Origin: a virus
Taxonomy: Duplodnaviria; Caudoviricetes
Strand: one strand, 5' to 3'
Length of the DNA: 62,694 nt
Virus record (IMG/VR): IMGVR_UViG_3300034167_000773
Location: 1 to 62,694 of that record
The notes beneath the pieces were generated by a model that searched no databases, was not told the DNA's origin, and worked only from the letters and a program-made list of their open reading frames with translations. Each line of letters opens with the position of its first letter. Positions within the stretch are counted from its first letter, which is position 1. Positions 1 through 46,000 of the stretch are shown piece by piece. The translations under genes and the position numbers were made by a program.

Positions 1-50
1 TAAGAGATGGTACTTATAAATAAGAATAGTATAAATAATAGTTTTTTCAT
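1..50 (-). CDS. N-terminus of a secreted/membrane protein, truncated by the window edge (MKKLLFILFLFISTIS...)
   Basis: ATG at 50 on the minus strand followed by a basic + hydrophobic signal-peptide-like stretch running off the window. Confidence 0.55.
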   Translation of the reverse strand, partial: MKKLLFILFLFISTIS

Positions 51-67
51 ACTGGTTTTACGAATAG

Positions 68-149
68 CAGTCAAGATGAGATTCGAACTCATGACTATGC
101 AACCTTATAGGATGTGATGGGCCCCTTCCACATTACGCATTACTTGACT
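68..149 (-). ncRNA. tRNA-like element (intact acceptor and T arms, non-canonical D/anticodon region)
   Basis: Minus strand reads AGTCAAG-TA-...-ATGAG-TTCGAAT-CTCAT-CTTGACT-G: perfect 7-bp acceptor stem, U8A9 and canonical T arm, but no 5-bp/7-nt anticodon arm; TAGTTTTG promoter element just upstream (155-162). Confidence 0.6.
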
Positions 150-203
150 TTGCACAAAACTACTACAAAAGTTTATATTTGCCGTAATTCTGTGCAGTGT
201 TTT

Positions 204-252
204 TGTCGGGAATCCTTAAATATGTCGGGAATAGCTAAATATTGTCGGGAAT
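204..252. repeat. Three direct repeats TGTCGGGAAT (candidate operator)
   Basis: Exact 10-mers at 204-213, 223-232 and 243-252 (19-20 bp period). Confidence 0.85.
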
Positions 253-623
253 CAAGGTCTATCCCAGATATACCCAAAACTTTTTATTGTCCTAATAGGA
301 GCAATAGTTATCTTACTTCTAAGTTTTCTAATGTGAACATCTACTGTTCTATCACCAATAAACTCATTTTCCCATACTCTTTCTAACAACTCATCTCTAG
401 TAACTATTCTACCAGAGTGAGTATATAGATACTTTAATAGCTCAAATTCTTTCTTAGGTAGAAATAATTTCTTTCCCTCAAAAGATACTGTACAATCATT
501 ACTGTTAATAACAATATTAGAAACAGGTAATGGATTAAGATAATTTTCCATCCATTGTGCACCTAATAAAAAAGCTTGTGGATTATCAAAAGCTTTTGAG
601 GCTTCAATTAATTCTTGTATCAT
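252..623 (-). CDS. OmpR/PhoB-type winged-helix DNA-binding protein lacking a receiver domain
   Basis: LPKKEFELLKYL...GRIVTRDELLERVW...DRTVDVHIRKLRSK...IRTIKSFGY is the Trans_reg_C signature; the ~40-aa N-terminus is too short for a REC domain. Confidence 0.9.
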   Translation of the reverse strand: MIQELIEASKAFDNPQAFLLGAQWMENYLNPLPVSNIVINSNDCTVSFEGKKLFLPKKEFELLKYLYTHSGRIVTRDELLERVWENEFIGDRTVDVHIRKLRSKITIAPIRTIKSFGYIWDRP

Positions 624-868
624 TTCTTTTTAAATTGTTCAAACCATACTTGCAGTAAATCAATTGTTCTTTCAGAGCCATCATATTTTGATTTAGCATG
701 TAATATTTGACCATTTATATTTTTATTTTTATCAGGATAAGTGGCTACAAACTCTGCAAACTTAATCATATCTTCCTCACTATACATTCTTTCTTGTTTA
801 GGTTCTTTTAATGGTTCACAATCACAAATTGTAGTATGACCACAATAACATTTAATTTCTTTATTCAT
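620..868 (-). CDS. Hypothetical phage protein with Cys/His N-terminus (CYCGHTTICDC)
   Basis: 82-aa ORF; stop overlaps the start of the downstream gene. Confidence 0.7.
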   Translation of the reverse strand: MNKEIKCYCGHTTICDCEPLKEPKQERMYSEEDMIKFAEFVATYPDKNKNINGQILHAKSKYDGSERTIDLLQVWFEQFKKK

Positions 869-870
869 AA

Positions 871-1416
871 TTATATAGAAATATGTACTGAGTCTACTTT
901 AAGTTTATCATAAACAAGAAAATCTATTTTATTAGTAAATCTTTTGTTCATAGTATCTTCTACTTTCCAAAATCCTCTAATATGTGCAGGTTGATGTACA
1001 TAAATAGTACTACCATAAGGATAAATATTAAGTAAGTCTCTGCTTACTGCTACAATATTAATAGTTTTATTCTTAAGCTTCTTTAAGTTAATCTTATATC
1101 CGGATCCTGTAATAAGAGGAGTCTTATCACATTGTCCTGAAGTAGGATTGTAGTAAGTAGCTTTAATTTTTCTAAAAGGTACTGTATCTATTTGTACAGA
1201 GTCTTTAATAGTTCTTACTTCTTTCTTACTATCAGCTTTATCAAGTGTATTATTTAAATGTGCAAAACATAAAATAAGAGTTGCTATTGCAGATAATATA
1301 TTTAATATTACTTTAAATATGTTTTCTTTTTTATCATATAATAAGTAACACTCTAAACCTGTGGCAAAAAATGATAATGCCATAAAAATAACCAAAATAT
1401 TAAGTATTGTAATCAT
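871..1416 (-). CDS. Membrane-anchored 3D-domain (MltA-like) putative peptidoglycan hydrolase
   Basis: ATYYNP..QCDKTPLITGSG...VAVSRDLL..YPYGS...VEDTMNKRFTNKIDFL matches the 3D domain pattern; two N-terminal hydrophobic segments; start placed at ATG 1416 to limit overlap with the sigma gene. Confidence 0.8.
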   Translation of the reverse strand: MITILNILVIFMALSFFATGLECYLLYDKKENIFKVILNILSAIATLILCFAHLNNTLDKADSKKEVRTIKDSVQIDTVPFRKIKATYYNPTSGQCDKTPLITGSGYKINLKKLKNKTINIVAVSRDLLNIYPYGSTIYVHQPAHIRGFWKVEDTMNKRFTNKIDFLVYDKLKVDSVHISI

Positions 1417-1849
1417 ACCATTTCTGTTTAAGTAATTTGTTAAGCTCATTGTAATCTTGCATAGATATCTGGAGCTCGTTACAGATATCTTTGACTGATT
1501 TATCATCAGATTTTAAAAGAAAGAACATATATAATGATGTACCCATTAATGTCTCCTTAAAGTTCTTAATGTCTATACTACTGTTATCATTATATTCTAA
1601 TCTCTCAGGTATAGTGTCTACATAATCAGGATGTTTCTTCCTAATATATTTATCAATATAATGGTTTCTAGCTACATTATTTATCCAAGTAACAGGTGCA
1701 CTTTTGGTGCTATCAAAGAGGTGTTGTTTAAGAGTTGCTTTAAGTAATATATCTTCTACAAAATCATCAAGATCTTCATCTTTTAATTTAAAGTTATTTT
1801 TAGCAAATCTTTTTACATCCTTCTTATAGTTGTAAAAATCAAAATTCAT
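1400..1849 (-). CDS. ECF-type (sigma70 family) RNA polymerase sigma factor
   Basis: Region 2 pattern EDLDDFVEDILLKA...FD...TWINNVARNHYIDKYIRK and region-4-like HTH KSVKDICNELQIS; 149 aa. Confidence 0.8.
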   Translation of the reverse strand: MNFDFYNYKKDVKRFAKNNFKLKDEDLDDFVEDILLKATLKQHLFDSTKSAPVTWINNVARNHYIDKYIRKKHPDYVDTIPERLEYNDNSSIDIKNFKETLMGTSLYMFFLLKSDDKSVKDICNELQISMQDYNELNKLLKQKWYDYNT

Positions 1850-1853
1850 GATG

Positions 1854-1861
1854 CAAATGTA
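1854..1861 (-). promoter_or_regulatory. Bacteroidota housekeeping-sigma -7 element (TACATTTG) upstream of the sigma gene
   Basis: Matches TAnnTTTG, 4 nt before the ATG at 1849. Confidence 0.65.
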
Positions 1862-2026
1862 TAAAAAAATAAGTTAGGACAATATATCCTAACTTATTAC
1901 TGTTAAAACACCATACAAAACACAAAAAGTTTCTTGTTTATAAGGTTAATATAAAGGAAATAAAGTAAGGGAGAATATCTCCCCTAATTTATATAACTAT
2001 TTATTCACAATTAACCAAAACACATG

Positions 2027-2100
2027 TGACTCTGGTAGGATTCAAACCTACAACTTTCACCTTAGAAGGGTGACACTCTATTCAATTGAGTTACAGAGTC
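2027..2100 (-). tRNA. tRNA-Arg (anticodon UCU), CCA not encoded
   Basis: GACTCTG-TA-ACTC AATTGAATA GAGT-G-TCACC CTTCTAA GGTGA-AAGTT-GTAGG TTTGAAT CCTAC-CAGAGTC-A folds as a full cloverleaf. Confidence 0.9.
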
Positions 2101-2110
2101 TTATAAGATA

Positions 2111-2473
2111 CTAATGTATCTTATTCTTATTTACCCTAATCCTTTCTTCTTCCATCATCTCTTCTAAAGCTTGTTCCACAATTTCTATTGGGAACTTTTT
2201 AATAGCATTAATGACAGCATTGTCAATACTATCTTGCTTAGAGATTACTCCCCTACTAACAAGAATATCATTGCAAATCTGCAACTTTTCTTGAAATAAG
2301 GCAACACTTGCTCTTTTCTCTTCAAGTCTCTTCCTTATCTCAGGAAGAATGACTTTTTCTAATTTTGTTGTTGGCATTGTGGGTAGTAATTCCATACTAC
2401 CATCCTTGTGTTTCCAGAGTTGTTTTTCTGAAAAATTAATCTTACTGCTGTTGTCTTTGATTTTTGTATTCAT
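2111..2473 (-). CDS. Hypothetical protein
   Basis: 120-aa ORF with AT-rich leader, in the minus-strand gene run. Confidence 0.7.
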   Translation of the reverse strand: MNTKIKDNSSKINFSEKQLWKHKDGSMELLPTMPTTKLEKVILPEIRKRLEEKRASVALFQEKLQICNDILVSRGVISKQDSIDNAVINAIKKFPIEIVEQALEEMMEEERIRVNKNKIH

Positions 2474-2520
2474 GATTTGTAAATTTTTAATACCCTAAAT
2501 TTAATGAAATAATAAAAAAA

Positions 2521-2542
2521 TAGGGGAGATTTCTCTCCCCTA
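2521..2542 (-). terminator. Rho-independent terminator
   Basis: Minus strand TAGGGGAGA-GAAA-TCTCCCCTA followed by a U7 tract, just after the 2552..2944 stop. Confidence 0.8.
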
Positions 2543-2551
2543 TAATCAAAC

Positions 2552-2944
2552 TTAAGCTACTGCTAAAGGATTAGCATTAACTACCTTAGTAGTACTAGTA
2601 GTACTAGCAACACCAATACCAAAGTCAGAAAAATCTGCTCTTGAAGAACTACCCTGTAAATGAGAACAAACTAGAAGAACTGTACTTTGACCATCTCTGA
2701 TGATAGCATTACAAAGGTAATCATTACCTTCAGTCATGCCTTTATCAAAATTAGCTTTGTTAATGATACAAGTTCTTTGTACCATTTGTCCCTTATCATT
2801 CTCAAATTGGATAGTACCAATGTGATACTCTTTACCAGATGGAAACTGTCCTACTGGTTGCTCAGAAACAGAAATAAGTCTGCCATTAAAATTAGCTACT
2901 TCTTGATTTCTTTCATCATCACGAATAAACTGAAAATTTGCCAT
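2552..2944 (-). CDS. Hypothetical protein, possibly OB-fold/ssDNA-binding
   Basis: 130-aa beta-rich ORF with low-complexity C-tail and A-rich leader; fold call is a guess. Confidence 0.6.
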   Translation of the reverse strand: MANFQFIRDDERNQEVANFNGRLISVSEQPVGQFPSGKEYHIGTIQFENDKGQMVQRTCIINKANFDKGMTEGNDYLCNAIIRDGQSTVLLVCSHLQGSSSRADFSDFGIGVASTTSTTKVVNANPLAVA

Positions 2945-3010
2945 AAAATTGTTTTTTTTTGAAATTTGTTTTTAAAAAAGATTAAATACTAAAAAGAATA
3001 TTGAAATTGT

Positions 3011-3256
3011 TTATTTAATAGCTTGTAACTCATATTGAGCTTCAAGTGAATCTATGTGAGGTGAGACAAATCTATCTACCTTATAACCTCCATAAGGAGG
3101 AGTAGGTTGAACTTCTTGCAAAATAAAGTAATCTTCATTTGTAATCTTGTTCCTACTTATTCTAAGAACAGTGTATTCCTGTCCTTCTTTAAGCCAACAG
3201 GAAGTTGGTACTTCCTGTGGCCTATTAGTTGCATCAATGCATACTACCTTAAACAC
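3011..3256 (-). CDS. Hypothetical phage protein
   Basis: 81-aa ORF overlapping the upstream stop (KVVCID...WLKEGQEYTV...RF). Confidence 0.65.
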   Translation of the reverse strand: MFKVVCIDATNRPQEVPTSCWLKEGQEYTVLRISRNKITNEDYFILQEVQPTPPYGGYKVDRFVSPHIDSLEAQYELQAIK

Positions 3257-3584
3257 TGTAGACTAATTTAGAAGTTAAAATTCTATTTAAGTCTTCTTGT
3301 CTTACATTAGATTCTTCTATAAGATGGTTTAAAGCATTCTCAAAAGATATCTTGTAGAAATCTTTCACAGCTAAACTAAACTTATTAATATCTGCTGTAG
3401 CAAAGTCTACCACAAGTTTGTCTTTTCCATTCTTATCTACAACTTTAATGTAGTTAGAATGAAGTAAACTTCTTTTGATTAGACTTTCGACTCTAAAATC
3501 AGAGTTAAATGCAACTCTGATAGTGTGGACTTGAAAGTTATTAACCTTTGAAGTCTTAATTCCGTAAACTGTTTTCTTGTTCAT
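3249..3584 (-). CDS. Hypothetical protein
   Basis: 111-aa ORF in the operon. Confidence 0.7.
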   Translation of the reverse strand: MNKKTVYGIKTSKVNNFQVHTIRVAFNSDFRVESLIKRSLLHSNYIKVVDKNGKDKLVVDFATADINKFSLAVKDFYKISFENALNHLIEESNVRQEDLNRILTSKLVYSV

Positions 3585-3716
3585 TTTGATAAATTGTTAA
3601 AATTTGTGAAACATCTAAATATTGCCAGTTTGTTGCAGGAAAGTATGTAACCTGCAAGTATTTCTTTAAAAGTGGTGATCTATCAGACCACCACTCTTGA
3701 GCTTTTTTAGTATCCA

Positions 3717-3995
3717 TCATTTGTTTATAATAACAACTGTTGTATACTGATAACGTCTAGAGCTAGGATATGCTAACTCATGTTTTGGCATCTGATTGTA
3801 GATGATTCTAATAGTATCACCTACTTTGTACATATCTTTATGCAATATTTCAGCATAATAGATAGGACTACAACAAGTCTCTTTTACAAGAACACTTGGT
3901 GTAATAGTTTCTTTTTCTTTAGCACAACTAGTAATCATAGTTACTAGTAATAACAAACTAATAATAGTTTGTTGAGCATTACTTATTTTCTTCAT
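3717..3995 (-). CDS. Lipoprotein
   Basis: Hydrophobic stretch ending ITSC then AKEKE; shares MY[KR][VL]GDT[IV] with 5211..5408. Confidence 0.7.
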   Translation of the reverse strand: MKKISNAQQTIISLLLLVTMITSCAKEKETITPSVLVKETCCSPIYYAEILHKDMYKVGDTIRIIYNQMPKHELAYPSSRRYQYTTVVIINK

Positions 3996-4329
3996 ACCAG
4001 TTTGATGAGAAATGTTCTACAGCTGGTTTTTTTTCAGGAAACTTAGGATAATAATGATACTCCCAGCACTCTGAACCATCATACTCATGTCTAGTAAACC
4101 AAGAATTATTTTTGCACCATATAGTGCCAAATAAGTATTGTCTACCAAATCCTGAGTTATACTCAAAATCTAAGTTATTCAGGAACTCTTCAAGTTCTTC
4201 TTCTGTATAATTTAGATTAAGAGTAAATACAGTATTATCATCATAAGAATACTCATGTCTAATTTGAGCACAAAGTACTTCAACTTTAAATGATGAAATT
4301 GTTTTTAAAAATTCTTGTTTTGCATTCAT
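3979..4329 (-). CDS. Hypothetical phage protein (aromatic-rich, LDFEYNSGFG...EYDGSE motif)
   Basis: 116-aa ORF coupled to neighbours. Confidence 0.75.
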   Translation of the reverse strand: MNAKQEFLKTISSFKVEVLCAQIRHEYSYDDNTVFTLNLNYTEEELEEFLNNLDFEYNSGFGRQYLFGTIWCKNNSWFTRHEYDGSECWEYHYYPKFPEKKPAVEHFSSNWYEENK

Positions 4330-4433
4330 GAGTTACCTGCTAAGATTACAATTTTACCTACAATAACAAATAGTGCTAATGTTGCAACTATTGTTATAAA
4401 GATGTCTAATGCTAGATCTCTGTACTTATCCAT
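4326..4433 (-). CDS. Small single-TM protein (35 aa, MDKYRDLALDIFITIVATLALFVIVGKIVILAGNS)
   Basis: Not in the ORF track; A-rich leader, stop overlaps the next start (ATGA). Confidence 0.6.
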   Translation of the reverse strand: MDKYRDLALDIFITIVATLALFVIVGKIVILAGNS

Positions 4434-4498
4434 TTTGTTTTTTTTTGTTAATGTGTGAATAAATAGGGAATTTCACCCTAAAATTTCTTACAATAGAT

Positions 4499-4792
4499 TT
4501 AAACTTTAGGTAATTCTGCTACTTTATCACAAGCAGCTAAAACCTTATTTAAATCTTTACAAAAGTACCCATACTCCTGTTTTAGTTCATCATTTAATGA
4601 TGAACAAAAGAATGGATCATATGAGTCTTCTACATAAACAATTAAGCCATAGTAGACAAACCTAAAATCCTCATCATCATGTACAGATGGAGTATTTTTC
4701 ACGATTATTAAACTATAACCATTAGGTAATGTTTTTGTATACTCAGTATTTCCACCATGTACATTTCTTTTTTTAAACTCTTCAATATTCAT
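4499..4792 (-). CDS. Hypothetical protein
   Basis: Start placed at ATG 4792 (MNIEEFKK) after an A-rich leader; the longer start overlaps the ribozyme. Confidence 0.7.
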   Translation of the reverse strand: MNIEEFKKRNVHGGNTEYTKTLPNGYSLIIVKNTPSVHDDEDFRFVYYGLIVYVEDSYDPFFCSSLNDELKQEYGYFCKDLNKVLAACDKVAELPKV

Positions 4793-4915
4793 GTTTTGTT
4801 GTTTTTTAAATTGTTTTAAATTAAGAATATTTCTTGTGTTAGTTGTAATAGATAACTCTTGCAAGTTATTGTTAGCATATATCCCTATACTATTACAACT
4901 ATACACAAAAAATAA

Positions 4916-5090
4916 TTTGCCCATCTGCACTCAGTTGTAACTAATAAATTCACCTTTAGATACTGTGTATCATCTGGGTTTTATTATTAATCTACTCAGT
5001 TATTCAACTCCTCAAAACTACAATCTAATGAGTAAGTGAGATTATTACAATTGCTCACCCTTTGGAAGTGAGTTATGGTGCATTAACAAA
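4916..5090 (-). ncRNA. Twister ribozyme, type P1, with a long P5 insertion
   Basis: P1 UUUGU/GCAAA; UAA; P2 UGCA/UGCA; CC; P4 CUCAC/GUGAG; L4 (U)UCCAAAGG; P5 CAAUUGUAAU/GUUACAACUG; GA-UGG. Both pseudoknots are Watson-Crick (CCA/UGG and CC/GG). Confidence 0.8.
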
Positions 5091-5091
5091 A

Positions 5092-5121
5092 AGGAATACA
5101 AGTATTGCTACCTGTATTCCT
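5092..5121 (-). terminator. Terminator-like hairpin abutting the twister P1
   Basis: AGGAATACAGGTA-GCAA-TACTTGTATTCCT followed by TTTT. Confidence 0.55.
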
Positions 5122-5142
5122 GAAATGCTGATTCAACAGAAA

Positions 5143-5208
5143 TTATTTTCTGTCATATGCAATAGCATCCTCAATGGATACTATTACACCATTGATAATG
5201 GCGCACAT
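5143..5208 (-). CDS. Possible 21-aa peptide (MCAIINGVIVSIEDAIAYDRK)
   Basis: ATG 2 nt after the lipoprotein stop; could equally be non-coding hairpin sequence. Confidence 0.3.
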   Translation of the reverse strand: MCAIINGVIVSIEDAIAYDRK

Positions 5209-5210
5209 AG

Positions 5211-5408
5211 TTACTTAACAATAAGATACTTGTTTCTATTTACATATACTGTATCTCCTAATCTATACATAGGATCTACGTTAATTAAATAGATAGCACT
5301 TGATGCTTTGTTATCTAAAGGACCAATAAGTCTTGCTCTGACTTTTTTATCATTTGAGCAAGAAGATAAGGCAGCTACTGCTGCAATAAGAATGAGAAGA
5401 TTTTTCAT
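5211..5408 (-). CDS. Small lipoprotein
   Basis: MKNLLILIAAVAALSSC lipobox followed by SNDKK. Confidence 0.8.
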   Translation of the reverse strand: MKNLLILIAAVAALSSCSNDKKVRARLIGPLDNKASSAIYLINVDPMYRLGDTVYVNRNKYLIVK

Positions 5409-5435
5409 TTGGTTTGTGAAATTTAAATTAAAACA

Positions 5436-5590
5436 TGTGTTTTACACCTAAAACTTTATACTTATCATAGTATTGTGGTAGTTATAGCAGTTTATTACTA
5501 TATACTAGTATTCCACAACCTATTTACTGAATGGATAAGAATTTACTAAAGAAACTGGTGCCCTCAACAACTTGGGAAGTTATTAAGTTT
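5436..5590 (-). ncRNA. Circularly permuted twister-like RNA lacking P4
   Basis: UCCCAAGU-U-GUU-GA-GGG-CACC ... GGUG-UAA-AAC-AC gives T1 CCC/GGG, P1 CACC/GGUG, UAA site, P2 AAC/GUU and T2 AC/GU; no P4 3' strand. Confidence 0.55.
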
Positions 5591-5706
5591 TTTGTGAATT
5601 TATTCTCAGAGTTAATAGCCATAGTAACCTAAACTTGTATGTGATAATACAGTTGATGATTACTTTGCTTCCAAAGAATAAATAAGAGAAAGGGGAATTT
5701 CACCCC

Positions 5707-6015
5707 TTAAGAATATCTATCTCCAGGTTTTCTACCTTTAGAGAAATGTTCTACAACATCTCTTTCAGTAGATTCCCTTTCAATAAAGTATTCTGTTGTT
5801 CTATCATCAACAGACTTGGATGGTTCTCTATAAGACCATTCAGTAAGAGTTCTATGATGAACAGTATTACTAAGACGTTCTCTATCTTTAATAAAAGTAA
5901 AGATGTCTGTACCTAACTCTTCTTTAACCATATCATTTAACTTGTGAAATAATTGGTTATAATCATTAAGAGTCTTTTGATTTCTAATGTTGTGTAATTC
6001 TTCTTGAATAGACAT
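5707..6015 (-). CDS. Hypothetical protein
   Basis: 102-aa ORF followed by the hairpin AAGGGG-TGAAATT-CCCCTT. Confidence 0.7.
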   Translation of the reverse strand: MSIQEELHNIRNQKTLNDYNQLFHKLNDMVKEELGTDIFTFIKDRERLSNTVHHRTLTEWSYREPSKSVDDRTTEYFIERESTERDVVEHFSKGRKPGDRYS

Positions 6016-6140
6016 TGGTAATTGTAAATAAAAAGTTTGGCTATAATTATTTATTAAAACAACAACTAAGGAATAGCAGATACTTAAAAGTTGAGTGATA
6101 TAGTATTAGAGTGATTATCAATCACTTATGAATAAATTTA

Positions 6141-6240
6141 AACAAATAAGCCATACCCTCTCAGGACTTGTATGGAGCACTCCAATGCTACTTGGACATT
6201 TACCACTGCTGAGTACAGTGTATGCTACTTCTTATTTGTT
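6141..6240 (-). ncRNA. Unassigned multi-stem structured RNA candidate
   Basis: 10-bp perfect closing stem AACAAATAAG/CTTATTTGTT enclosing AGCAT/GTGCT, ACTG/CAGT, TCCAA/TTGGA and CCATAC/GTATGG stems. Confidence 0.5.
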
Positions 6241-6292
6241 AATAGTTTCTAGAACATATAAACACAATTAAAAGGGGGGTTTCCCCCCACTC

Positions 6293-6550
6293 TTAGCCGA
6301 GAACCATCAGAGCCTCACCAGTCTTGGTAGTCCTCACAGTTCCATCCTCATTCTTCCAAGGCTTCAGTTCATACTGAGTTTGGAATACACCTACCTGACC
6401 AGGTTGTAAGCCTGCACAGATATCAATAGCAGCATACACAGGTATACCACCAAATACACCAGGCTTCTTGATTAACAATAATGCCGTAGTCTTCTTCTCA
6501 CCTCTAATGGAGTGGAAAAGGAACATTTCATTTTTTTCTACTATTCTCAT
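6293..6550 (-). CDS. Hypothetical protein (higher GC than surroundings)
   Basis: Start placed at ATG 6550 (MRIVEK); followed by a G/C hairpin at about 6272-6294. Confidence 0.65.
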   Translation of the reverse strand: MRIVEKNEMFLFHSIRGEKKTTALLLIKKPGVFGGIPVYAAIDICAGLQPGQVGVFQTQYELKPWKNEDGTVRTTKTGEALMVLG

Positions 6551-6669
6551 AATTAATTGTGTTTTATGACAGGAGATCACATACCGCCTACCTGCCTTCA
6601 CTAAGACATTGGGGGACTTTGTTGTTAGTTGTCCAACCCTTACACAAATTTTTAAAAATTTTAAAAAAA

Positions 6670-6990
6670 TTAAAATTTTATATTAAGCATCTTAAGAAGA
6701 ATCTTAAACTCTTCCTCATTATCTACTTCCCCTTCAAATACTAATCTTTCTTGTTTATAGATATATATCTTATCAAAGACATCTTTCTTTTTTGGATCAT
6801 ATAAACTCCTAAGAATAATTCCAGTAGGTATAGGATGTTTATCTACAAACTCATATGTTTTCCATTTCTCATAATAAGCTTCAAAATCATTTTCTCCAAT
6901 TGTAAAAACAAAAGTTGAATTACCAGTATCAGTTGAGGATGCTTCCTTAAAATTATTATCATTTATGATATCTATTATTTTTTTTCTCAT
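6670..6990 (-). CDS. Hypothetical protein
   Basis: ATG at 6990, downstream of TATATTTG (7006-7013, minus strand). Confidence 0.7.
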   Translation of the reverse strand: MRKKIIDIINDNNFKEASSTDTGNSTFVFTIGENDFEAYYEKWKTYEFVDKHPIPTGIILRSLYDPKKKDVFDKIYIYKQERLVFEGEVDNEEEFKILLKMLNIKF

Positions 6991-7187
6991 AAGTTTTATT
7001 TTTTGCAAATATATATAAAAAAACAAAAAGGTAGTAACTAAGTTACTACCCCTGATTGCATATGCTATACAATGCTTCTTGAATTCTAATCTTATTGAGT
7101 AAGAGATACTTACCTATAGGTAAATGAATACTTAAATTTATAATTAAGTTATTTAATTAATTATACGAGAAATAAATAACTTTCTAT

Positions 7188-7322
7188 TTATCTTCCTTGT
7201 CCAGCATAAGGTTTCTTATACTTCTTACTCCCCTTAGCTAAGCTATTTTTCTTAGAATGTCTACCAAGAGAACTCTTAGCTTTCTTCTTGAATAAGGTTT
7301 CTGTTACTTTGTTCTTTGCCAT
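7188..7322 (-). CDS. Small basic phage protein ending ...YKKPYAGQGR (44 aa)
   Basis: Not in the ORF track; MAKNKVTETLFKKKAKSSLGRHSKKNSLAKGSKKYKKPYAGQGR resembles the widespread phage KxYxGQGR peptides (from recall). Confidence 0.75.
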   Translation of the reverse strand: MAKNKVTETLFKKKAKSSLGRHSKKNSLAKGSKKYKKPYAGQGR

Positions 7323-7473
7323 AATTATCTAATAATTGTTTTATTCTTTCCATTGCTTGTTGAGTTCCCTCTTCACCCTTAATACTATCTAAGAAATCTT
7401 TATTCTTCTTAAGAAAAAGAGAGTATTCTTGTTTCTTTAACTTTTCTAATTTTCTTCTGTATTGCCTATTCAT
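7276..7473 (-). CDS. Hypothetical protein (MNRQYRRK N-terminus)
   Basis: 65-aa ORF, first gene of the leftward unit. Confidence 0.65.
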   Translation of the reverse strand: MNRQYRRKLEKLKKQEYSLFLKKNKDFLDSIKGEEGTQQAMERIKQLLDNYGKEQSNRNLIQEES

Positions 7474-7486
7474 AATATTTTATTCT

Positions 7487-7494
7487 TATATTTG
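7487..7494 (+). promoter_or_regulatory. Bacteroidota -7 promoter element TATATTTG for the rightward unit
   Basis: TAnnTTTG match with TTG at 7462-7464; ATG at 7516. Confidence 0.65.
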
Positions 7495-7515
7495 CAAGTA
7501 ATAATACGAATAAAA

Positions 7516-7914
7516 ATGAAAACTATAAAATTAAAATTGTTAGTATTTGAAGATTCTCTTAAAGATTCTAAAGGAAAGACTATAACACATGATATTGCAG
7601 ACATGTTAAGAGAGGTTGGAGAAGAAGTAATTGAGGGAGAAAATTTAGCTTACAAGGATATTGTCTTTGCTTTTAATACTCTACCTCCATTCATCCTTAT
7701 TGGCAATCAAGTATCCCCACTAACTGAGCATACCTTTACTATTATGCAAGGATTAACTGAGGATATTATGTTTAACTTCCTAGAAAGTCCTGATGAGATT
7801 ATGAAACTTATTAATGATGTTGAAGAGAAACACCTTAATGAAGAATTTACTAACTTCCAACTTAAGATACCTTTTAATAATGGAGAAACAAAGACTGATA
7901 GCAGTGAAGGGTGA
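7516..7914 (+). CDS. Hypothetical acidic protein
   Basis: Start placed at ATG 7516 (MKTIKLK), downstream of the promoter. Confidence 0.7.
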   Translation: MKTIKLKLLVFEDSLKDSKGKTITHDIADMLREVGEEVIEGENLAYKDIVFAFNTLPPFILIGNQVSPLTEHTFTIMQGLTEDIMFNFLESPDEIMKLINDVEEKHLNEEFTNFQLKIPFNNGETKTDSSEG

Positions 7915-8218
7915 TCCTTATCACAACTATATGAAGGTTATGGCTCTAAACTTTAATCTTACTGAGACAGAAATTAAAGTAGCTGCAGAGTTACTTAGAG
8001 AGTATGAAGCATTTCTTATACAAAGTACACCTGAGATAGCGTGGGAGTTGTTAAACTCCCCTAAGACTAACAAGAAGATTAAGGACAAACTCCTTCTTAA
8101 GGATGCTTCTTACAACAACATTAAAGCATCTCTTAAAAAGAAAAGTCTCTTAACTACTTCTGGCTTTAGAAATGGTATATATCTAGCAGATATTAAGTTT
8201 ATCTTTAGTGAGACTTAG
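7880..8218 (+). CDS. Putative HTH DNA-binding protein upstream of terminase
   Basis: LTETEIKVAAELL...YNNIKASLKKK pattern; position typical of crAss-like phages; start at ATG 7880. Confidence 0.55.
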   Translation: MEKQRLIAVKGDPYHNYMKVMALNFNLTETEIKVAAELLREYEAFLIQSTPEIAWELLNSPKTNKKIKDKLLLKDASYNNIKASLKKKSLLTTSGFRNGIYLADIKFIFSET

Positions 8219-37000: not shown

Positions 37001-40000
37001 ATGGCAAAAAAAATAACACCTACTTTTAGCTCTGGAGGGTTTCCAGTAGTACCTCAATCTACAACTGGTATTGATGTTGGATTTGAAGGATCAAAGTATG
37101 AAAGACCTATAGCACCTGGAGAATCTGTTGAACAAGTACTTGCTGCAGAGCAAGGAATGATGGATGTTACTGGTAATATTCTTGGTAGATTTCTTGGTAG
37201 AGCAACATTATCTGTAGCAGAAACTGCAGGAATGATTGGATATGGAAGTATTGCTGCTATTAGAGATAGAAGTTTTTCTAGTTTATATGATAATGAATTA
37301 AGTAAACAATTTAAAAAAGCTGATGAGTTCTTAGTTAAGAATACTCCATTCTATGATACTGCTGAAGAAAAGAAAGCTAAATTCTTTTCCTCAGATATTT
37401 TTACAGTAATGGGTAGTGCAGGATTCTGGGGTAATGCCTTAGGTGAGGGTGCAGGTTTTGTAGCAGGTGCTGTTGCCGGAGGTTATGGAACAGGACTTTT
37501 ATTAAAGGGCTTAGGAGCTCTTGGTAGAGGTGCCTTAACTGTAACTAGAATGTCTAAAGCTGTAACTGCTGCTACAGAAGCAGAACAATTAGGAGCCTTA
37601 GCTGCTGAGGGGGTTAAGGATGTTAACTTTGCTAATAAAGTAAAAAATGTTCTTAGTAGTGCTAAGTTTAAAAATGCTGCTCAATTTCAAACTCAAAGAG
37701 CAGTTAGTAATATGTATGAAGCTGGTGTAGAAGCCAAGGGAATTAAGGAAGAATATATTGCTAACATGGAGAAAGACTTTAAGTTGCAATATGGAGAAGA
37801 TGCTGTTGCTGATGAAGCTACTAAACTTGATTGGGAAAAACAAGCTAACAAGTATGCCAATGTTGGTTTTGGAATAAACATGGCTTTACTTAATCTTGAT
37901 GGAATAGGATATAGTAGATATTTTAAAGGATATAAGGAAACTAGAAAAGCTATTGATGCTACTAGAGATGCTGCTACTGGAATGTATAAGCCTCTTACAG
38001 GTATTAGAAAAGGTATCTCTACAGTTAAGAATTATGGAGGTAATGCATTTGCAGAATCCTTTCAAGAAGCAGGTCAGTATGTTACTGAGAAGACTCTTAC
38101 AGATAGAGACTTACAACAATCTGGAAGAGGTATTACAGATTATGTAAGAGCTACTATAAAAGGTTTAGAAGAAACTTTTGGTAGTAAAGAAGGACAAGAA
38201 AGTATGGTTATTGGTGCTATGCTTGGTGGCCCATCTTCTGTTAGAGAAGGTATGGCCCAAGGTAAACTTAATCAAGTAGGTATAGACTTACTTAATAAGT
38301 ATATGGCTAAGGAATCTATTGCTCCTATTATTAAACATACTAATGATGCCGTTCAAAGTAATAAAGGAGATCTTAGTGAGAGGGTAGCTGAATCTTCTTC
38401 TAAGTATCTTTTTAGAAGTGCACAAGATGAGGCTTTCTATAACTATGTAAATAGTAGAATACAGTCAGGAAGATTTGGAGACATGATGGATGATCTTGAT
38501 GACTTTAAAAGAATGGATGAAGGTACCTTTAATGAACTTTTTGTCACTTCTTATGATAGAGTTAAGAAAGATCAAACAGTACAAGAACTCATCAACTCTG
38601 CTAAAAGAATTCAAGATATTACTGATAAGACAGATGCAGTTTATGGTAAGAATAAATTTAAGAGTGAGATTATTAAAACTGTAGCTGATGTATCTACTTA
38701 TGATAAAAGAATAAATGAAATACAAAGTAAATTAGCTTCTGAGAATAATCCTCTTGAGAGAGAACTTTTGATGAGTGATTTAGGATTCTTAGTTAAGGAT
38801 AGAGATGCCGCTAATGCTAAACTTAGATTAATGACTTCTCTTGCTTCTAATGAAGAAATTGCTCTTAATAAAGAAAAAAATGAGAAGCCTAAGAAAGAAA
38901 TAGAAAAAATTGATAAAGAAAAACCTCCTGTAGCTGCAACACCTACTCCAAGTACTGATATTGTTAAAGGTAATACTGTTGTAGTAGATGGTAAGAAAGT
39001 AATTATAGAAGGAATTAATGATGATGGTACTGTAAGAGGAGCTACTCCTGCAGGACCAATAACATTTGATCCTGATGAGATAGATGCTCCTATTCAAGGA
39101 TTTGAGAAAAGTGACCACTATGATGAAGAACCTCAAGAATTAACTCCTGAGAAAGCTACTCTTGGTAGAGATGCAGTAGATGCTCCTGCTGGAGAAAACT
39201 TTGGAGGTAGAGCTTTTGTATATGATCCTCTTGACCCTAACTCTGAATTTGGTCAATGGACTGATTTTCAACCTATCTTAAATAATGATGTATTAAATAA
39301 TAAATTAAATAATGGTAATGCTACAGAATTAGATAAAACTAATGGAGCTAAAGCTCAAGAAGTTGTTGATAAACTTATCAATGACAACATGAAGAAAATT
39401 AAAGACACTCATACTTTTGAAGTTAGAAATGAGAATGGTAGAAATAACTTATATGCCATTGATAGAAAAGATAATAAACCAACTCTTATAGGATTTTTTA
39501 AGAATGGTAACTTTCAAGTAGGTAACTCATCTAATACTAAATCTAAAAAGAAACATAATGGTTTAAATGAGTTTGTAGATTCATATTCTCAAACTGAGCA
39601 AGGTAAGAGAAAACAAATACCTGATAAAAATGGTAGAAATGTTTTCATGGATGTTATTAATGGATGGAGAAAACTTATTAATAGTAAAGTAGCTGATGTT
39701 ACTAATTATTTAAAGTTACGTTCAGAAATACTCAATACTGGTACTCCTACAACTCTTGCAGAGATTATGAATTCTCCTTATGCTGAGAGATGGAAAGTTA
39801 ATGGAGAATATGTTATTGTACATAATGATAATGGTAACTATATTCTTATAGATAATGTTAATCAAAAATCAAATATTGATTTAGCCAATGAATACTTAAA
39901 TAAACCAGATGCTGTCAGATCTCTTGGTACTCAATATGCAATTCTTGTTAAAAGACCTGATAGTGATAATTATCAGTTTATTGGATTAAAGGGTGGAGAT

Positions 40001-43000
40001 TTATCTGCTACTGAAAAACAATCTTATGTAGAACTTGTAAAAAAAGTTAATAATAATCCTGGTGAATATACTCAGGAAGAAGTTGATAAAATTATTAATG
40101 ACTTAAATAAAAATATATTCTTAGCTACTAATAAAGTAATTAAAATTGAGGGGCAAGAAGTTCCCATTCACATTAGATTTTATAGAACTAAGGGTAAAAA
40201 TCAAATTAAAATTATTACTTCTCCTAAGTTAGGATTAGATGGTAAACCAGTAGGAGGTATTAAGTTAACTCTTAAACAAGCATTTGGAACTTTTCCTGAT
40301 GTAGAATCTGCTATCATTAATCTTGGTAAAAAGAAAATTTATAAAGCTTCTGAGGAGGCACAAGATTTAGATTTCTTAAAAGATTATCTTGAGACTAAAG
40401 TTAGTCCTACTATTTGGAAAACATATTTTAGATTTGAGCATAGAGATTTCTTAGCTAATGAGGTTAATAATACTAATGAAAAATACTCTGCTGCAGAACA
40501 AGAATTTCCAGCTAATAGTGAGAATGTATATAATGTAGGAGATTCTGTTATTTGGAATGGTGCTCCACATACTATTGCTAAAATAGTTGCTGGAGGAGTT
40601 CCATTTTATACACTAGCTGATGCTAGTGGTAATATTGTTAAAACTTCTACAAAACAAGATAGATTATTTCCTGCCACTCAATTAACTCCTGCTAAAAAAG
40701 AAGCACCTACAGAAAGAATGAAAAATGTAGGAATGAGTAGACAACAAGCTGAGGATGATATAGAAAAACTTGGAGTTGACTTATATTATGCTAAATTATT
40801 AGGTAAATCAGTTGAAAAAAATAAACCTCTTGATAAAGGAAAACAATATCTTAGAATTATTGTAGATATGTCAAACCATGCAAGTGCTGCTGAAATAATA
40901 ACTGGCACTGGAGAAGTTTACAATTATACTCAAATGAGTGGTTATTCTGGTTCAGGAACATCAAATCAAATGGTAATTCAATTACCATCATTTTATGATA
41001 GTAAAGGAAAACTTTTTGAAGGTAGTCTTTCTACAGGTTATATATATGAAATACCTAATATAGATATTAATAATAAAGAACTTTTAGCTCAATTTTTATC
41101 ATCATCTAACTATATAAAAAATAAACCTATATCTGCTAAAGTAGGTTTTGTAAATAATAATGATGGTACTTCAACATTAAAATATTATGATTTAAATTTT
41201 AATGTAAAACAAAAAATTATAGAAACTCCAGCAGGAGCATATCCTGAAAAATTAATTAATGATTTTTTAAAAAAGGAATATGATGCAGAATTAGCTGCTT
41301 TAAAAGGAGTTAAACCTACTGCTCCTGTATCTGATTTTAATTCTTTACCGGATTTACAGAAACAAAATCTTATTGCTGCTAAAATTCTTAAAGCTCCTCC
41401 TACTGATATGTTAATGACATTAACTCCAGAGGAAAGAAAATATTATAATGAGTATAAAACTGTAATAGATAATATAATAGACATGTTATCTATTGGAGGT
41501 CTTTATCAACAAAGTGGTAAAAATAATGATTTAGATCCAGCACTTGGAGGAGTTGATATTGCTGATAATCTTCCTGCAGAAGGACCTATAGGTACATTTA
41601 AACCTGCTATTGAGGATGCTAACTTAGAAGAAATCTCTGATGAGGTTGCTAGAGAAATAGAAGCTTTTACCGGACTTAAGGTAGAGTTTTATAAAGAAGG
41701 TAATACTCAAAACTTTGGTGAGTTTAGAGATGGTATTATATACTTAAGTAGATTTGTTCCTAAAGGTACTCAGTGGCATGAAGCTTTCCATGGTATCTTC
41801 TCATTACTTCCAGAAGCTGAGCAAGATAGATTACTTAGAATTGCTGGTAATAAGTGGGGAGTAACTAATGAGGAGTTTATGGAACTCATTAAAATTTATG
41901 AAGATAGAGGTCATGCTAACTTCTTAAAAAGTGTAGGTAAGGATTGGATTGTAAAAACTATTCTTGAGGAAAAGATTGCAGATCATTTTCAAGAGTTTAT
42001 GGTAGAAGGTAAGAAGCCAGTAATTCTAGAAAGTTTCTTTACTAAAGCTAAAAGATTTGTAAATCTAATGACTGGTGTAGTAGAAGAACCTTCTTTCCAA
42101 TCATTCTTTGCTGATGCTACTAAAGGTAAATTTAAAAAGAATGTTCCTGTAGGTACTCAAGCTAGAATTGCTACTGCTAAATATAAAGTTATTCCTGGTA
42201 GTAAAACAGAAACAGAATCTAATAGATTGATTAAGGAACTTGTTAATTTGTATGCAGATAGACATAATCCTAAATTACTTGAGAACTTTCCTGAACTTAA
42301 AGATGCTGATAATACTCTACAAGGATTTGTAAGGTATTATATAAATTTACTTAGAAAATATTCTAATGAGGGAATTGTAAGACAAGCTACAGAATATAAA
42401 CAAATATTAGAAGATCCACTTGTTCCTGATGAAAGGAAAGAAAGTGTAAAAAGAGATTATGATGATTTTCTAAAATCTCTTCAAAAACCTGAAGACCCTA
42501 ATATTCCACCTACTTTTGTTAAAGAAGATGGATTAGTATTTCCTGCTTTATTTCACTCTAGTAATCTTAAAATGATTACTAAAGAAGTAATTAGGACTGG
42601 TAATTTTAAAGAAACTTATGAGGAAGTAGATCAAGAAAATGAGAAGGATATTATGCACAATGAAAGTGTGCAATCTAAAAATCCTCTTACAGAAACTTCT
42701 ACTAGAGATTTAAGAAATATTATCTCTAGTATGTATTACTTTGATATGGGTAAACCTACATTCTTAGATGAGAAAGGTGTTATTAATAATCTACTCTTTA
42801 ATCTAAGTAATGTTGAACCTGAGCAATATGAGGAAACTTTACAGAAACTTGCTAGAGAAGGAAATAATAGTATTGATAAGTCTGATTTCTCAAGATCTAT
42901 GCAAGAGGTTCTAAATATGTATAGAGGTAATGAAACTTTTAAAAACATTTTTAAAGGTGCATTTGATAAAAGGTTTGTAAAGTCTTTTCAAGTTGTAGAT

Positions 43001-46000
43001 ACTGTTAACACTAGAAATAGTGGTTCTAAAGTAATTACAGTTAATATGAAGAACCATCTTTATGCTCAAATGAATTTATGGAGAAATCAAGGTTTTAATA
43101 AAGAAATTAATTCTGAGGTAGTTAAAGATCTTAAAGATATTGGTAAAGGTCTTGGTATTAATATTGAACAAGATGTTTATACTGATCCTAATGCACAAGA
43201 AGTTCTTAATAAATTATATAAAATAATTAAGGGTGGTTTACAGAATAGAGATTTTAATAAAGTATTTTCTTCTGAGGCAAATAGAAATGTTCTTGAAAGT
43301 TTAGCTGCATTTAATATTGAAAGAAGATTAGATTTGGGAGAATTAAATTATAAAAATGCTGATGATAAAACTCAGTATTCTATTATTAATAACTCACACT
43401 TACTTGAGAAGATTACTAAAATTTATCTTCCTGAGTTGGATACAAGAAAACCTGAGAAAAGAGCTGCTGAAGGAAACTTACCTAACTTGACTTTTGGAAC
43501 ATTCTCAGGTTCACAATTTGGAGATAATTCTCACACTTACTCAGACCTTGATCCTGTTACTTATTTATATACAACTTTTAGTTTGTATAATAATTACTAT
43601 AAGAAAGGAGATGTTGATAAAGAATTTACACCTTATTTCTTTATTCAACAGTGGGAATCTAAGAGTACTAACTTTGTATTTCAAGGATATAATCATGCTG
43701 CAGATCCTATAGAAAATATTCTTAAATACTTAAATGAGGAAGTAGATAGACAAGCTATTAGAATTAATGAAACATTAGAATCTCTTAAGAAAGATGAAGA
43801 TATTAAATTAATTGATGGATATCATATTCTTAAAGATCCTAATAATAAATTATCTCCAAGAGAATATACTCTCTCACTTGTTGAGAGATTTATGAAAGAT
43901 GATATTACAAGAGACCAACTTCCAAGAGGTTTTCAGTATACTAATCTTCCATATGCTAATGAAAAGATTATCTCACAAAATCCAGTAACTTTAGAAGATT
44001 TAGAAAAAATGCTTTCTAAACAAGCTGAGAATATGGATAAGTATTTCAGAGAGTTTAACATCAATAAGATGAGTTTCTTAAAGGAAACTACTAATGATAA
44101 TAACTTAACTGAGGAGCAAGCTAATAAGTATATGAGAAACTTTCTTCTTAATCAGTATATGAATAGAAGTAGAGTTCTTGCTCAAATTACTCCTAATCTT
44201 GCAGAATTTAAAGGGTATGTAGATATTACTAAGAGGGGTGCTGGTGTACTAGCATCTGGTCCTAATCATGGAGAAGGAAACTTTAAGTTTGGTGTTATTA
44301 AAGATATAGATATTGAGGGGGCTAACTCTACTGATGCTGCAGGATATGAGAGTATATCTGAGAGGATAAATAGACTTCTTAGAAGAGGAGTAATCTCTAA
44401 TACTGATATGTCTACAGGTGGAGTAAGTGATAAGAAGTATGAGAATTATTTGCTTCTTAAAGCTCACTTAGAAGATGATAGAGATTATATTGATCTTCAT
44501 GATGATGATGATGCTCTTCTTAAAATTGAGAAGACTGTGGGTTATGGAGAAGAGTATTATATTAAGACTGCTGTAGCTCCTATAACAAGATATATGAGCT
44601 CACAGTTTGCAAATAAAGGAGATAAAATAACTGTTAATGGTGTAGAGTATACTGCTGTAAAAGATGTAGTTAATGAGAAATACTATCTACCTCTACCTTC
44701 CTCAGTAGATAGCTGGAAAATGCTTAATGAGATGCAGCAAGAAAATGGCCCACAAGCCATCTTTGCAGAATCTGCAATTAAGAAAAATGTTAATAGTAAG
44801 GTAGATGTACAAACAGAAAGTTTTGCTGGTAAGACTTTAGACTTTAGATATAAAGATTATCGCTTACAACAAGAAAACCCATCTGGTAAAGAAAAGATTA
44901 AAGATGGTACTCAGTTACTACAACTTATTGATGCATACTTTTCTAAAGATTTTGGTGGTGATGTTTCTAAGCAAATGGATGCTCTTGTTTCTGAACTTAA
45001 AAGTTATGGCTTTGAGTTCTTTGGTAGAGAGTTAGTTGCTAACATTAATGGAGAAACTTATGATCCTTTTATGGAATATGTGCAAGCAGCTATGGAAGGT
45101 TCTGCACTTAGTGATAGGATTATGGAATTCTTTGAGAAAGATCCTGTAACAGGAACTATGAAAATCTCTAGTAACATGCCTATGATTAGGAATAAGTTTG
45201 AGCAATATGTTATGTCTTACTATAACAATAATATTGCATCTCATAAAGTTCCTGGTAATAAGTGTACTCTCCTAACATCCTTGACTAAAGGAGTTATAAC
45301 TTTTGGAGATAAAACAATTAGTACTTATGAGTATAACAACTTATCTAAAGAAGATAAAAACAAATGTTCTACTAGAAGACTTTCATGGGCTACAGAATCT
45401 AAACCTTATGCTGAGGTTATTGTATCTGAGGAATACATTAATCAGATGGGATTTACCATCTCTGAGTGGCATGATTTAAAGAAAAATGATCCAACCTTAT
45501 TTGAGAAAGTATCTACAGCAGTAGGTTACAGGATTCCTACACAAGCTCAACACTCTATGATACCAATTAAGATTGTTGATATTTTACCTGCTAGTTATGG
45601 TAGTACAATTATAGCACCTGCAGAAATTACTAAAATCTCTGGAGCTGACTATGACGTGGATAGTTTATATATCCATAAACCAAGTGTTTATCATACTGTA
45701 GAAAATAAAGTTAAGAAGTTTAAAATGTATGAAGATGATGTATACTCCTATGAAAAATCTATTAACAGTAATAAGATAGTTAAGGAGATAGCATCTAAAT
45801 TAAATAGTGAAGAGAAAGAATCTATTCAACATCAGATGATGATTCTTAAAAGAAAGAAATATTCTATTAGTAAAAAATTAAATGATCTTAGAAGTATTTC
45901 TGATACTATTAAAGAATCTTCTCCTGCTGAAAGAGATAAGTATTATGCTGAAAAAGATTCCTTACTTACTGAGATTAAAGCTGTTAATAATGATTTAGCT

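Follow-up and report, generated by a model that had tools for sequence, protein, structure and literature searches.

The window, i.e. the whole stretch of 62,694 nt analyzed here, is an IMG/VR virus record (IMGVR_UViG_3300034167_000773) of about 30% GC, in which TerL, portal and major head protein families are present. The major head protein is 35% identical to its counterparts in crAss-like phages, and a 3973-aa ORF (37001-48922, plus strand) presumably corresponds to the giant proteins of these phages. Positions 1-8000 carry small genes on the minus strand, and a tRNA-Arg (TCT) gene is found within this block (2026-2100, minus strand). The element described below resides in the spacer separating two of the small genes, encoding proteins of 65 and 97 aa, neither of which has a match in PHROG.

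Positions 5090-4916 of the minus strand encode, with a probability of about 0.8 as judged from the sequence, a self-cleaving ribozyme of the twister class, type P1, lacking P3 and featuring a long, variable P5 (Table 1). The core elements of a twister, which the original prediction had placed here in the proper order, are all present on the minus strand at the positions listed. P1 of the window copy is made up by 5 pairs only and is AU-rich, and its P5 stem includes one mismatch, A5051 opposite C4934. The P3 helix is absent from every family member inspected. A degenerate pattern describing the core has a single match in the window, even when 2 mismatches are allowed, and was found in none of 100 dinucleotide-preserving shuffles.

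Table 1. Features of the ribozyme locus, in the direction of transcription (coordinates refer to the window; fractions with denominator 107 refer to distinct alignment rows)
Feature	Position	Strand	Remarks
Upstream 65-aa gene	5211-5408	-	transcript would be ended by the terminator-like hairpin
Terminator-like hairpin, 13 pairs, then U-run	5092-5121	-	U-run supplies the P1 5' strand
P1 5' strand UUUGU	5086-5090	-	partner 4920-4916; 6/6 P1 columns of the family covary
Predicted scissile bond U5085/A5084, then A5083	5084-5085	-	U 101/107, A 105/107, A 106/107
P2 5' strand UGCA (5082-5079), plus C5078	5078-5082	-	two-sided changes in 4/4 P2 pairs
C5077, which may pair with G5060 in T2; AUAA junction in place of P3	5073-5077	-	C in 104/107
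P4 5' strand CUCAC	5068-5072	-	5/5 P4 pairs covary among model-found copies
L4 loop UUCCAAAGG	5059-5067	-	T1: C5065, C5064, A5063; T2 candidates: G5060, G5059
P4 3' strand GUGAG	5054-5058	-	covariation in family alignment
P5 5' strand CAAUUGUAA	5045-5053	-	covariation in 8/9 P5 pairs
Variable P5 insert, 104 nt	4941-5044	-	without homologue in the loci compared; fold z = -0.13
P5 3' strand UUACAACUG	4932-4940	-	covariation in family alignment
A4931 and G4930	4930-4931	-	G4930 covaries with C5078
P2 3' strand UGCA	4926-4929	-	covariation in family alignment
L1 3' side GAUGG	4921-4925	-	G4925: candidate general base; T1 partners: U4923, G4922, G4921
P1 3' strand GCAAA	4916-4920	-	partner of 5090-5086
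Solo P5-like hairpin without ribozyme core	4843-4898	-	59-nt alignment with the P5 arm of locus L017, 85% identity
Downstream 97-aa gene	4499-4792	-	probable start ATG 4792; the homologue in locus L001 aligns only from about that Met (75% identity)

The exact 19-nt P4 hairpin of the window is present in 31 IMG/VR stretches; in their flanks the core is conserved, and the P1 strands are variable yet mutually complementary. The degenerate core pattern was detected in at least 119 IMG/VR stretches, which provided 122 copies, 106 of them unique among the matches listed. Pattern-found copies range in length from 81 to 355 nt, all the variation residing within P5, and the window copy is 165 nt long. 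A covariance model (R1), built on an alignment of 59 members (A2), retrieved, at E ≤ 1e-4, 126 copies from the window and loci L001-L099 taken together, 43 from loci L100-L149, and 100 from 80 metagenome loci. The single match in the window spans positions 4912-5094 of the minus strand (92.8 bits, E 1.8e-24). Once pooled, the matches correspond to at least 222 unique sequences from viral, MAG and metagenome contigs, figures which count sequences, not independent events. Sequence comparison assigns the element to a large subfamily residing in crAss-like phages, mostly of fresh water, of which it is one copy. Among the loci taken from genome contigs R1 confirmed 13 out of 27, and 7 of the 13 are held by Bacteroidota bins, a hint that Bacteroidota are the hosts, the binning of phage contigs being unreliable. 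No description of twisters in crAss-like phages was found in the text of the literature searched, although supplementary alignments of the Weinberg group may already include members of the family. The accessible text of a review on Crassvirales names introns and inteins only (PMC10136315).

The secondary structure was analyzed in an alignment of 107 distinct rows (A3), in which the nested helices are fitted to model R1 and pseudoknot T1 lies outside the model. Paired cells account for 93.4% of the total, vs. 82.0% in shuffles, none of 500 reaching the observed value, and vs. 26-49% when partners are slid. Two-sided changes occur in 26 of 29 pairs, and include every pair of P1 (6/6), P2 (4/4) and P4 (5/5); the order of the stems is that of the Rfam consensus. 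The first P1 pair (columns 9-331) is U-G in 36 rows. Frequent U-G pairs, which are mismatches on the opposite strand, point to an RNA of the minus strand rather than to a DNA structure.

All three pairs of T1 covary in the same alignment (CG 97, UA 1; CG 91, AU 10; CG 72, AU 25, other 4). Excluding 27 of the 222 unique copies, which could not be parsed, the three T1 pairs are all standard in 186 of 195 copies, one pair being broken in the remaining 9. CCC/GGG is the prevalent state (139 of the 195 parsed copies), followed by CCA/UGG, the type found in the window (32 copies), and CAC/GUG (13 copies); UCC/GGA and a further paired case were each found once. A type-P1 twister with a compensated T1, as foreseen in the original prediction, is borne out by these data, CCA/UGG being one of at least three natural covarying states. 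The T1 state differs between copies carrying near-identical P5 arms (L003 vs. L119; L004 vs. L040 and L107), hence the two distant halves of T1 either changed jointly more than once or recombined together.

Candidate catalytic positions vary little among the 107 rows (U-1 conserved in 101, A+1 in 105, the L1 G corresponding to window position 4925 in 101, the L1 A in 103), conservation of the 5' core being partly by construction, as the search pattern fixed it for most members. Many copies found by R1 depart from the search pattern in P2, P4, L2 and L4, and much of the ascertainment bias is thereby removed. The alignment demonstrates that helices P1, P2, P4 and P5, as well as T1, are maintained by compensatory change, and that the nucleotides of the putative twister active site are conserved.

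The claim that T2 is compensated as CC/GG holds in part. CC and GG are complementary in nearly all copies, but changes are one-sided only (CG 84, UG 16 at one pair, CG 101 at the other). Two-sided changes involve C5078 and G4930 (columns 17-320; CG 86, UA 15, UG 1 in A3). The base with which the first L2 position covaries is thus the one located 5' of the P2 3' strand, which would add a fifth P2 pair to UGCA/UGCA, and in the 195 parsed copies the combination CC..G was counted 165 times vs. 23 for UC..A. These patterns would fit a five-pair P2 with a reduced T2, an alternation between both pairings, or a triple which includes the third base. An altered length of P2 may disturb the active site, according to a review (PMC5408937). 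The non-canonical T2, the 9-nt L4, the lack of Rfam matches, and the short P1 and P5 mismatch of the window copy count against its assignment to the twisters.

P5 arms of about 30-300 nt are present in all members, variable length being the norm in the family. The sequence of the P5 base stem is conserved well beyond the needs of pairing, UGUAA being found in most rows. The 104-nt insert of the window has no homologue in the 149 loci compared. Stems predicted within it can be seen in the MFE fold, but the fold is no stabler than those of shuffled sequences (-19.5 vs. -19.06 kcal/mol, z = -0.13). The closest relative (L002) has terminator and P1 as in the window, and a different insert. In a contig from a different lake sample (run X9) 38 unrelated letters join position 4941 to position 5044, and many contigs from other lake samples have only the region 5044-5085 in common with the window, with breaks at 5085/5086 and 5043/5044. 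The hypothesis that the insert is a regulatory domain, or a small RNA carried by the ribozyme, finds no confirmation, as the insert has no homologue in the loci compared, is exchangeable, and folds no more stably than shuffled sequences. Rather than a conserved domain with a function of its own, it is most likely filler tolerated within an exchangeable arm.

A P5-like hairpin devoid of the ribozyme core is located between the ribozyme and the 97-aa gene, just upstream of the latter. This solo hairpin and the swapping of inserts between samples argue that P5 arms are exchangeable modules. Similar solo P5 arms adjoin twisters in L109, L126, L034 and L006; these are single examples, the only kind used here, as pattern scans for solo P5 hairpins are noisy and yield palindromic matches on both strands. 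In L117 (5677-5804, plus strand) a P5-type hairpin is flanked by AAUGCAUUCCAG and CUGGAUGCAUU, and combines P2-like and P5 parts without P4; it is possibly a decayed or reduced relative of the ribozyme.

Family members reside in spacers. In the set of 126 unique copies with 400-nt flanks, ORFs of at least 80 aa overlap no more than 11 copies, and an ATG ORF on the same strand begins within 150 nt downstream of 66. In all 28 loci hosting multiple copies, these are all on one strand, and one or two copies are found per near-complete genome (114-122 kb). A stable hairpin ends within 10 nt of the cut site in 63 of 140 copies, vs. 128 of 700 random positions (odds ratio 3.7, the random control including coding DNA). 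The hairpin preceding the ribozyme in the window may represent the optional P0 stem of twisters; against this reading, the same hairpin stands without a ribozyme in L001, and is found elsewhere in L103, L056 and L061. L001 shares both the terminator hairpin and the downstream gene with the window, the two being separated by about 45 nt vs. about 300 nt in the window, and related phages therefore differ by insertion or deletion of the ribozyme region. An extended form of the 97-aa gene, starting from the AUG at 4924, was rejected. The L001 homologue aligns only from Met 47, and in L004, which also carries CCA/UGG, the frame stops after 12 codons, as determined by eye. On these grounds, the AUG is a by-product of the UGG state of T1.

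Other RNAs were detected close to family members. In L105 a Hatchet ribozyme scoring above the Rfam threshold (2079-2215, minus strand; 81.5 bits) is about 1.6 kb away from the twister-like element, on the same strand. In L040 a match to Pistol (1398-1457, plus strand) reaches 33.9 bits vs. a threshold of 34.5, 1.3 kb upstream of the twister-like element. Hatchet ribozymes are largely limited to Crassvirales, according to a preprint (10.64898/2026.03.07.710320).

At positions 5545-5600 of the window (minus strand) lies a motif of some 50 nt, AAAAAACUUAAUAACUUCCCAAGUUGUUGAGGGCACCAGUUUCUUU, which is conserved, with about 90% identity to gut crAss-like phages. Of 150 sources, 14 contain the motif, with 14 copies in total; it has internal covariation of the type YYY...RRR (CCC/GGG, UCC/GGA, CUC/GAG, CCU/AGG) and begins 13-18 nt past the twister copy in 5 loci. 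The motif has no match in Rfam; an RNA hairpin and an element linked to a promoter are both conceivable. Matches to tRNAs whose anticodon arm contains or adjoins an insert of about 50-56 nt were observed in L121 (635-755 and 1002-1117, minus strand) and L013 (1953-2067, plus strand), loci which also carry the ribozyme. L013 additionally contains a match to the freshwater-1 RNA (1696-1763, plus strand), which at 66.3 bits is below the threshold of 72.

No Rfam family matches the element in searches of the whole window at gathering score, and neither twister nor any other family was found in the region 4700-5300 at E ≤ 10. The Rfam twister-P1 model (RF03160; gathering threshold, 67.2 bits) had been proposed as a check. 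Run on the whole record, with the insert present, it gave no match to the element, which lies below the E = 10 reporting level. The original prediction held that the insert may hide the element from covariance models. Rfam does miss the element, but members with a P5 of about 30 nt are missed as well: at E ≤ 10, RF03160 found no match in 13 loci with short members, nor in any of 5 whole records, so the insert alone does not explain the miss. Taken as a refutation, as in the original prediction, the lack of a twister hit with the insert removed would speak against the assignment, but covariation shows that this criterion was too strict. In a sample of 151 genomes RF03160 had matches in 3, above threshold in one. 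Conversely, with filters off, R1 matches all the canonical RF03160 sites in L151-L155, with scores of 18.0, 17.6 and 13.5 bits (E 0.0015-0.036), and 6.3 bits at two sites. The matches are weak, and based on P1, UAAUGCA and UGCAGAGGG. As current Rfam models miss the family, twisters are under-counted in surveys of phages and metagenomes.

By analogy with established twister chemistry, the 2'-OH of U5085 would attack its 3' phosphate, with G4925 and A5084 serving as general base and general acid, respectively. Cleavage would leave a 2',3'-cyclic phosphate at the end of the upstream RNA, and a 5'-OH on A5084, the first nucleotide of the downstream RNA. The predicted cut falls a few nt past the hairpin which would terminate the upstream small gene. 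The genomic context suggests that the ribozyme probably cuts a read-through or polycistronic RNA in two. The upstream product would terminate with the hairpin; the downstream product would be the mRNA of the 97-aa gene, with a 5'-OH and the folded ribozyme body as leader. Reviews report that self-cleaving classes cluster together and near phage genes, and mention the proposal that they process polycistronic RNA (PMC10085705, PMC6765202). Metagenome and metatranscriptome contigs were inspected for ends at the cut site, and none starts at position 1 among the 80 matches listed. Among the sequencing runs listed as containing positions 4400-5500 of the window none is of RNA, and the runs aligned to the locus consist of DNA contigs.

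Alternative explanations differ in what the element would do, or in whether it is an RNA element at all. Chance resemblance in AT-rich spacer DNA would agree with the lack of Rfam matches, but is refuted by the existence of a covarying family and by the failure of 100 shuffles to reproduce the core pattern, and its probability is negligible. The same lack of Rfam matches, together with the non-canonical T2, the fifth P2 pair, and the conservation of UGUAA at the P5 base beyond pairing needs, would also fit an RNA which has kept the twister fold and lost cleavage, to act as a structured 5' leader, for instance as mRNA stabilizer or protein binder. This is highly improbable, as nucleotides required for catalysis only are retained (A+1 in 105 and L1 G in 101 of 107 rows), and both a Hatchet and a near-threshold Pistol occur in the same phage regions. 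A ribozyme whose cleavage is gated by a factor or by the timing of transcription, either through the P5 arm or through T2 competing with the fifth P2 pair, seems rather improbable too. P5 is always present and long, and C5078 is able to pair with G4930 or G5059; yet P5 inserts have no common motif or length, the insert in the window is not unusually stable, and no aptamer family of Rfam matches the region 4700-5300.

Ribozyme and hairpins may also chiefly be a selfish, or recombining, intergenic cassette, acquired and lost among phage genes and of no specific benefit to the flanking ones. The short spacing between terminator and downstream gene in L001 (about 45 vs. about 300 nt), the lake contigs which share with the window the core 5044-5085 only, with exact breaks at 5085/5086 and 5043/5044, the swapping of P5 arms between copies, and the occurrence of solo P5-like hairpins all fit this picture. 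It is nonetheless not very likely, given that near-complete phage genomes have only 1-2 copies each, that copies are always on the gene strand, in spacers, and that no associated mobility gene was seen. A cassette of this kind and a role in processing are mutually compatible. A more elaborate scheme, itself unlikely, would make the family a twister in which half of T2 has been swapped for a local pair. C5078 would alternate between two partners, G4930 for the fifth P2 pair and G5059 for T2, and cleavage would wait until the long P5 has been made and has folded, or until a factor binds it. The element might then work as a timing or regulatory switch, by which crAss-like phages would couple read-through of the terminator to the way the next early gene is processed.

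Read as a self-cleaving twister, the element adds a large subfamily, so far uncatalogued, of at least 222 unique copies, to one of the best-studied ribozyme classes. The family supplies natural mutational data on T1, with swaps at all three pairs, and a natural T2/P2 variant which tests the idea of a fixed four-pair P2. Its position is defined, past a terminator hairpin and before small genes, within short-gene blocks of crAss-like phages about which little is understood. The sharing of these regions with Hatchet and Pistol makes the role of phage self-cleaving ribozymes, long open, testable in one system.

Hatchet and Pistol share the phage niche of the window family, but have unrelated folds, and neither matches the window locus. 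For twister-sister (RF02681), a similar P4 loop sequence has been reported (PMC6154101, PMC5408937). According to the description available, however, twister-sister has no pseudoknot and cuts the opposite strand of the internal loop (PMC5408937), whereas T1 covaries in the window family, and the conserved UAA is found where twister cuts. RF02681 has no match in the region 4700-5300 at E ≤ 10.

The definition of twisters comprises a U-A cleavage site and a conserved G, in addition to three stems (P1, P2, P4) and two pseudoknots (T1, T2) (PMC5408937, PMC6154101). The window family has the same succession of P1, UAA, P2, P4, P2', G-A plus three T1 bases, and P1' as the type-P1 twister (RF03160, clan CL00120). 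Canonical twisters also feature P2 UGCA/UGCA, L4 UCCCAAG or UCACAAG, L1 GAGGG or GAGUG, and a three-pair T1 pseudoknot. Differences concern other regions. P4 is made up by 5 pairs in the window family and by 3 in canonical twisters, and L4 is UUCCCAAGG (9 nt) vs. GUCCCAAGCC (10 nt, ending GCC) in the Rfam consensus. L2 CC or UC is combined with L4 GG, in contrast to GC and GC, and an extra covarying pair, unlike in canonical twisters, lies atop P2. P3, which canonical twisters usually contain, is replaced by the junction AYAA or AUU, and P5 is always present where canonical twisters have a UAAA junction; the frequencies reported for the optional stems of twisters are 21% for P0, 78% for P3 and 1% for P5 (PMC6154101).
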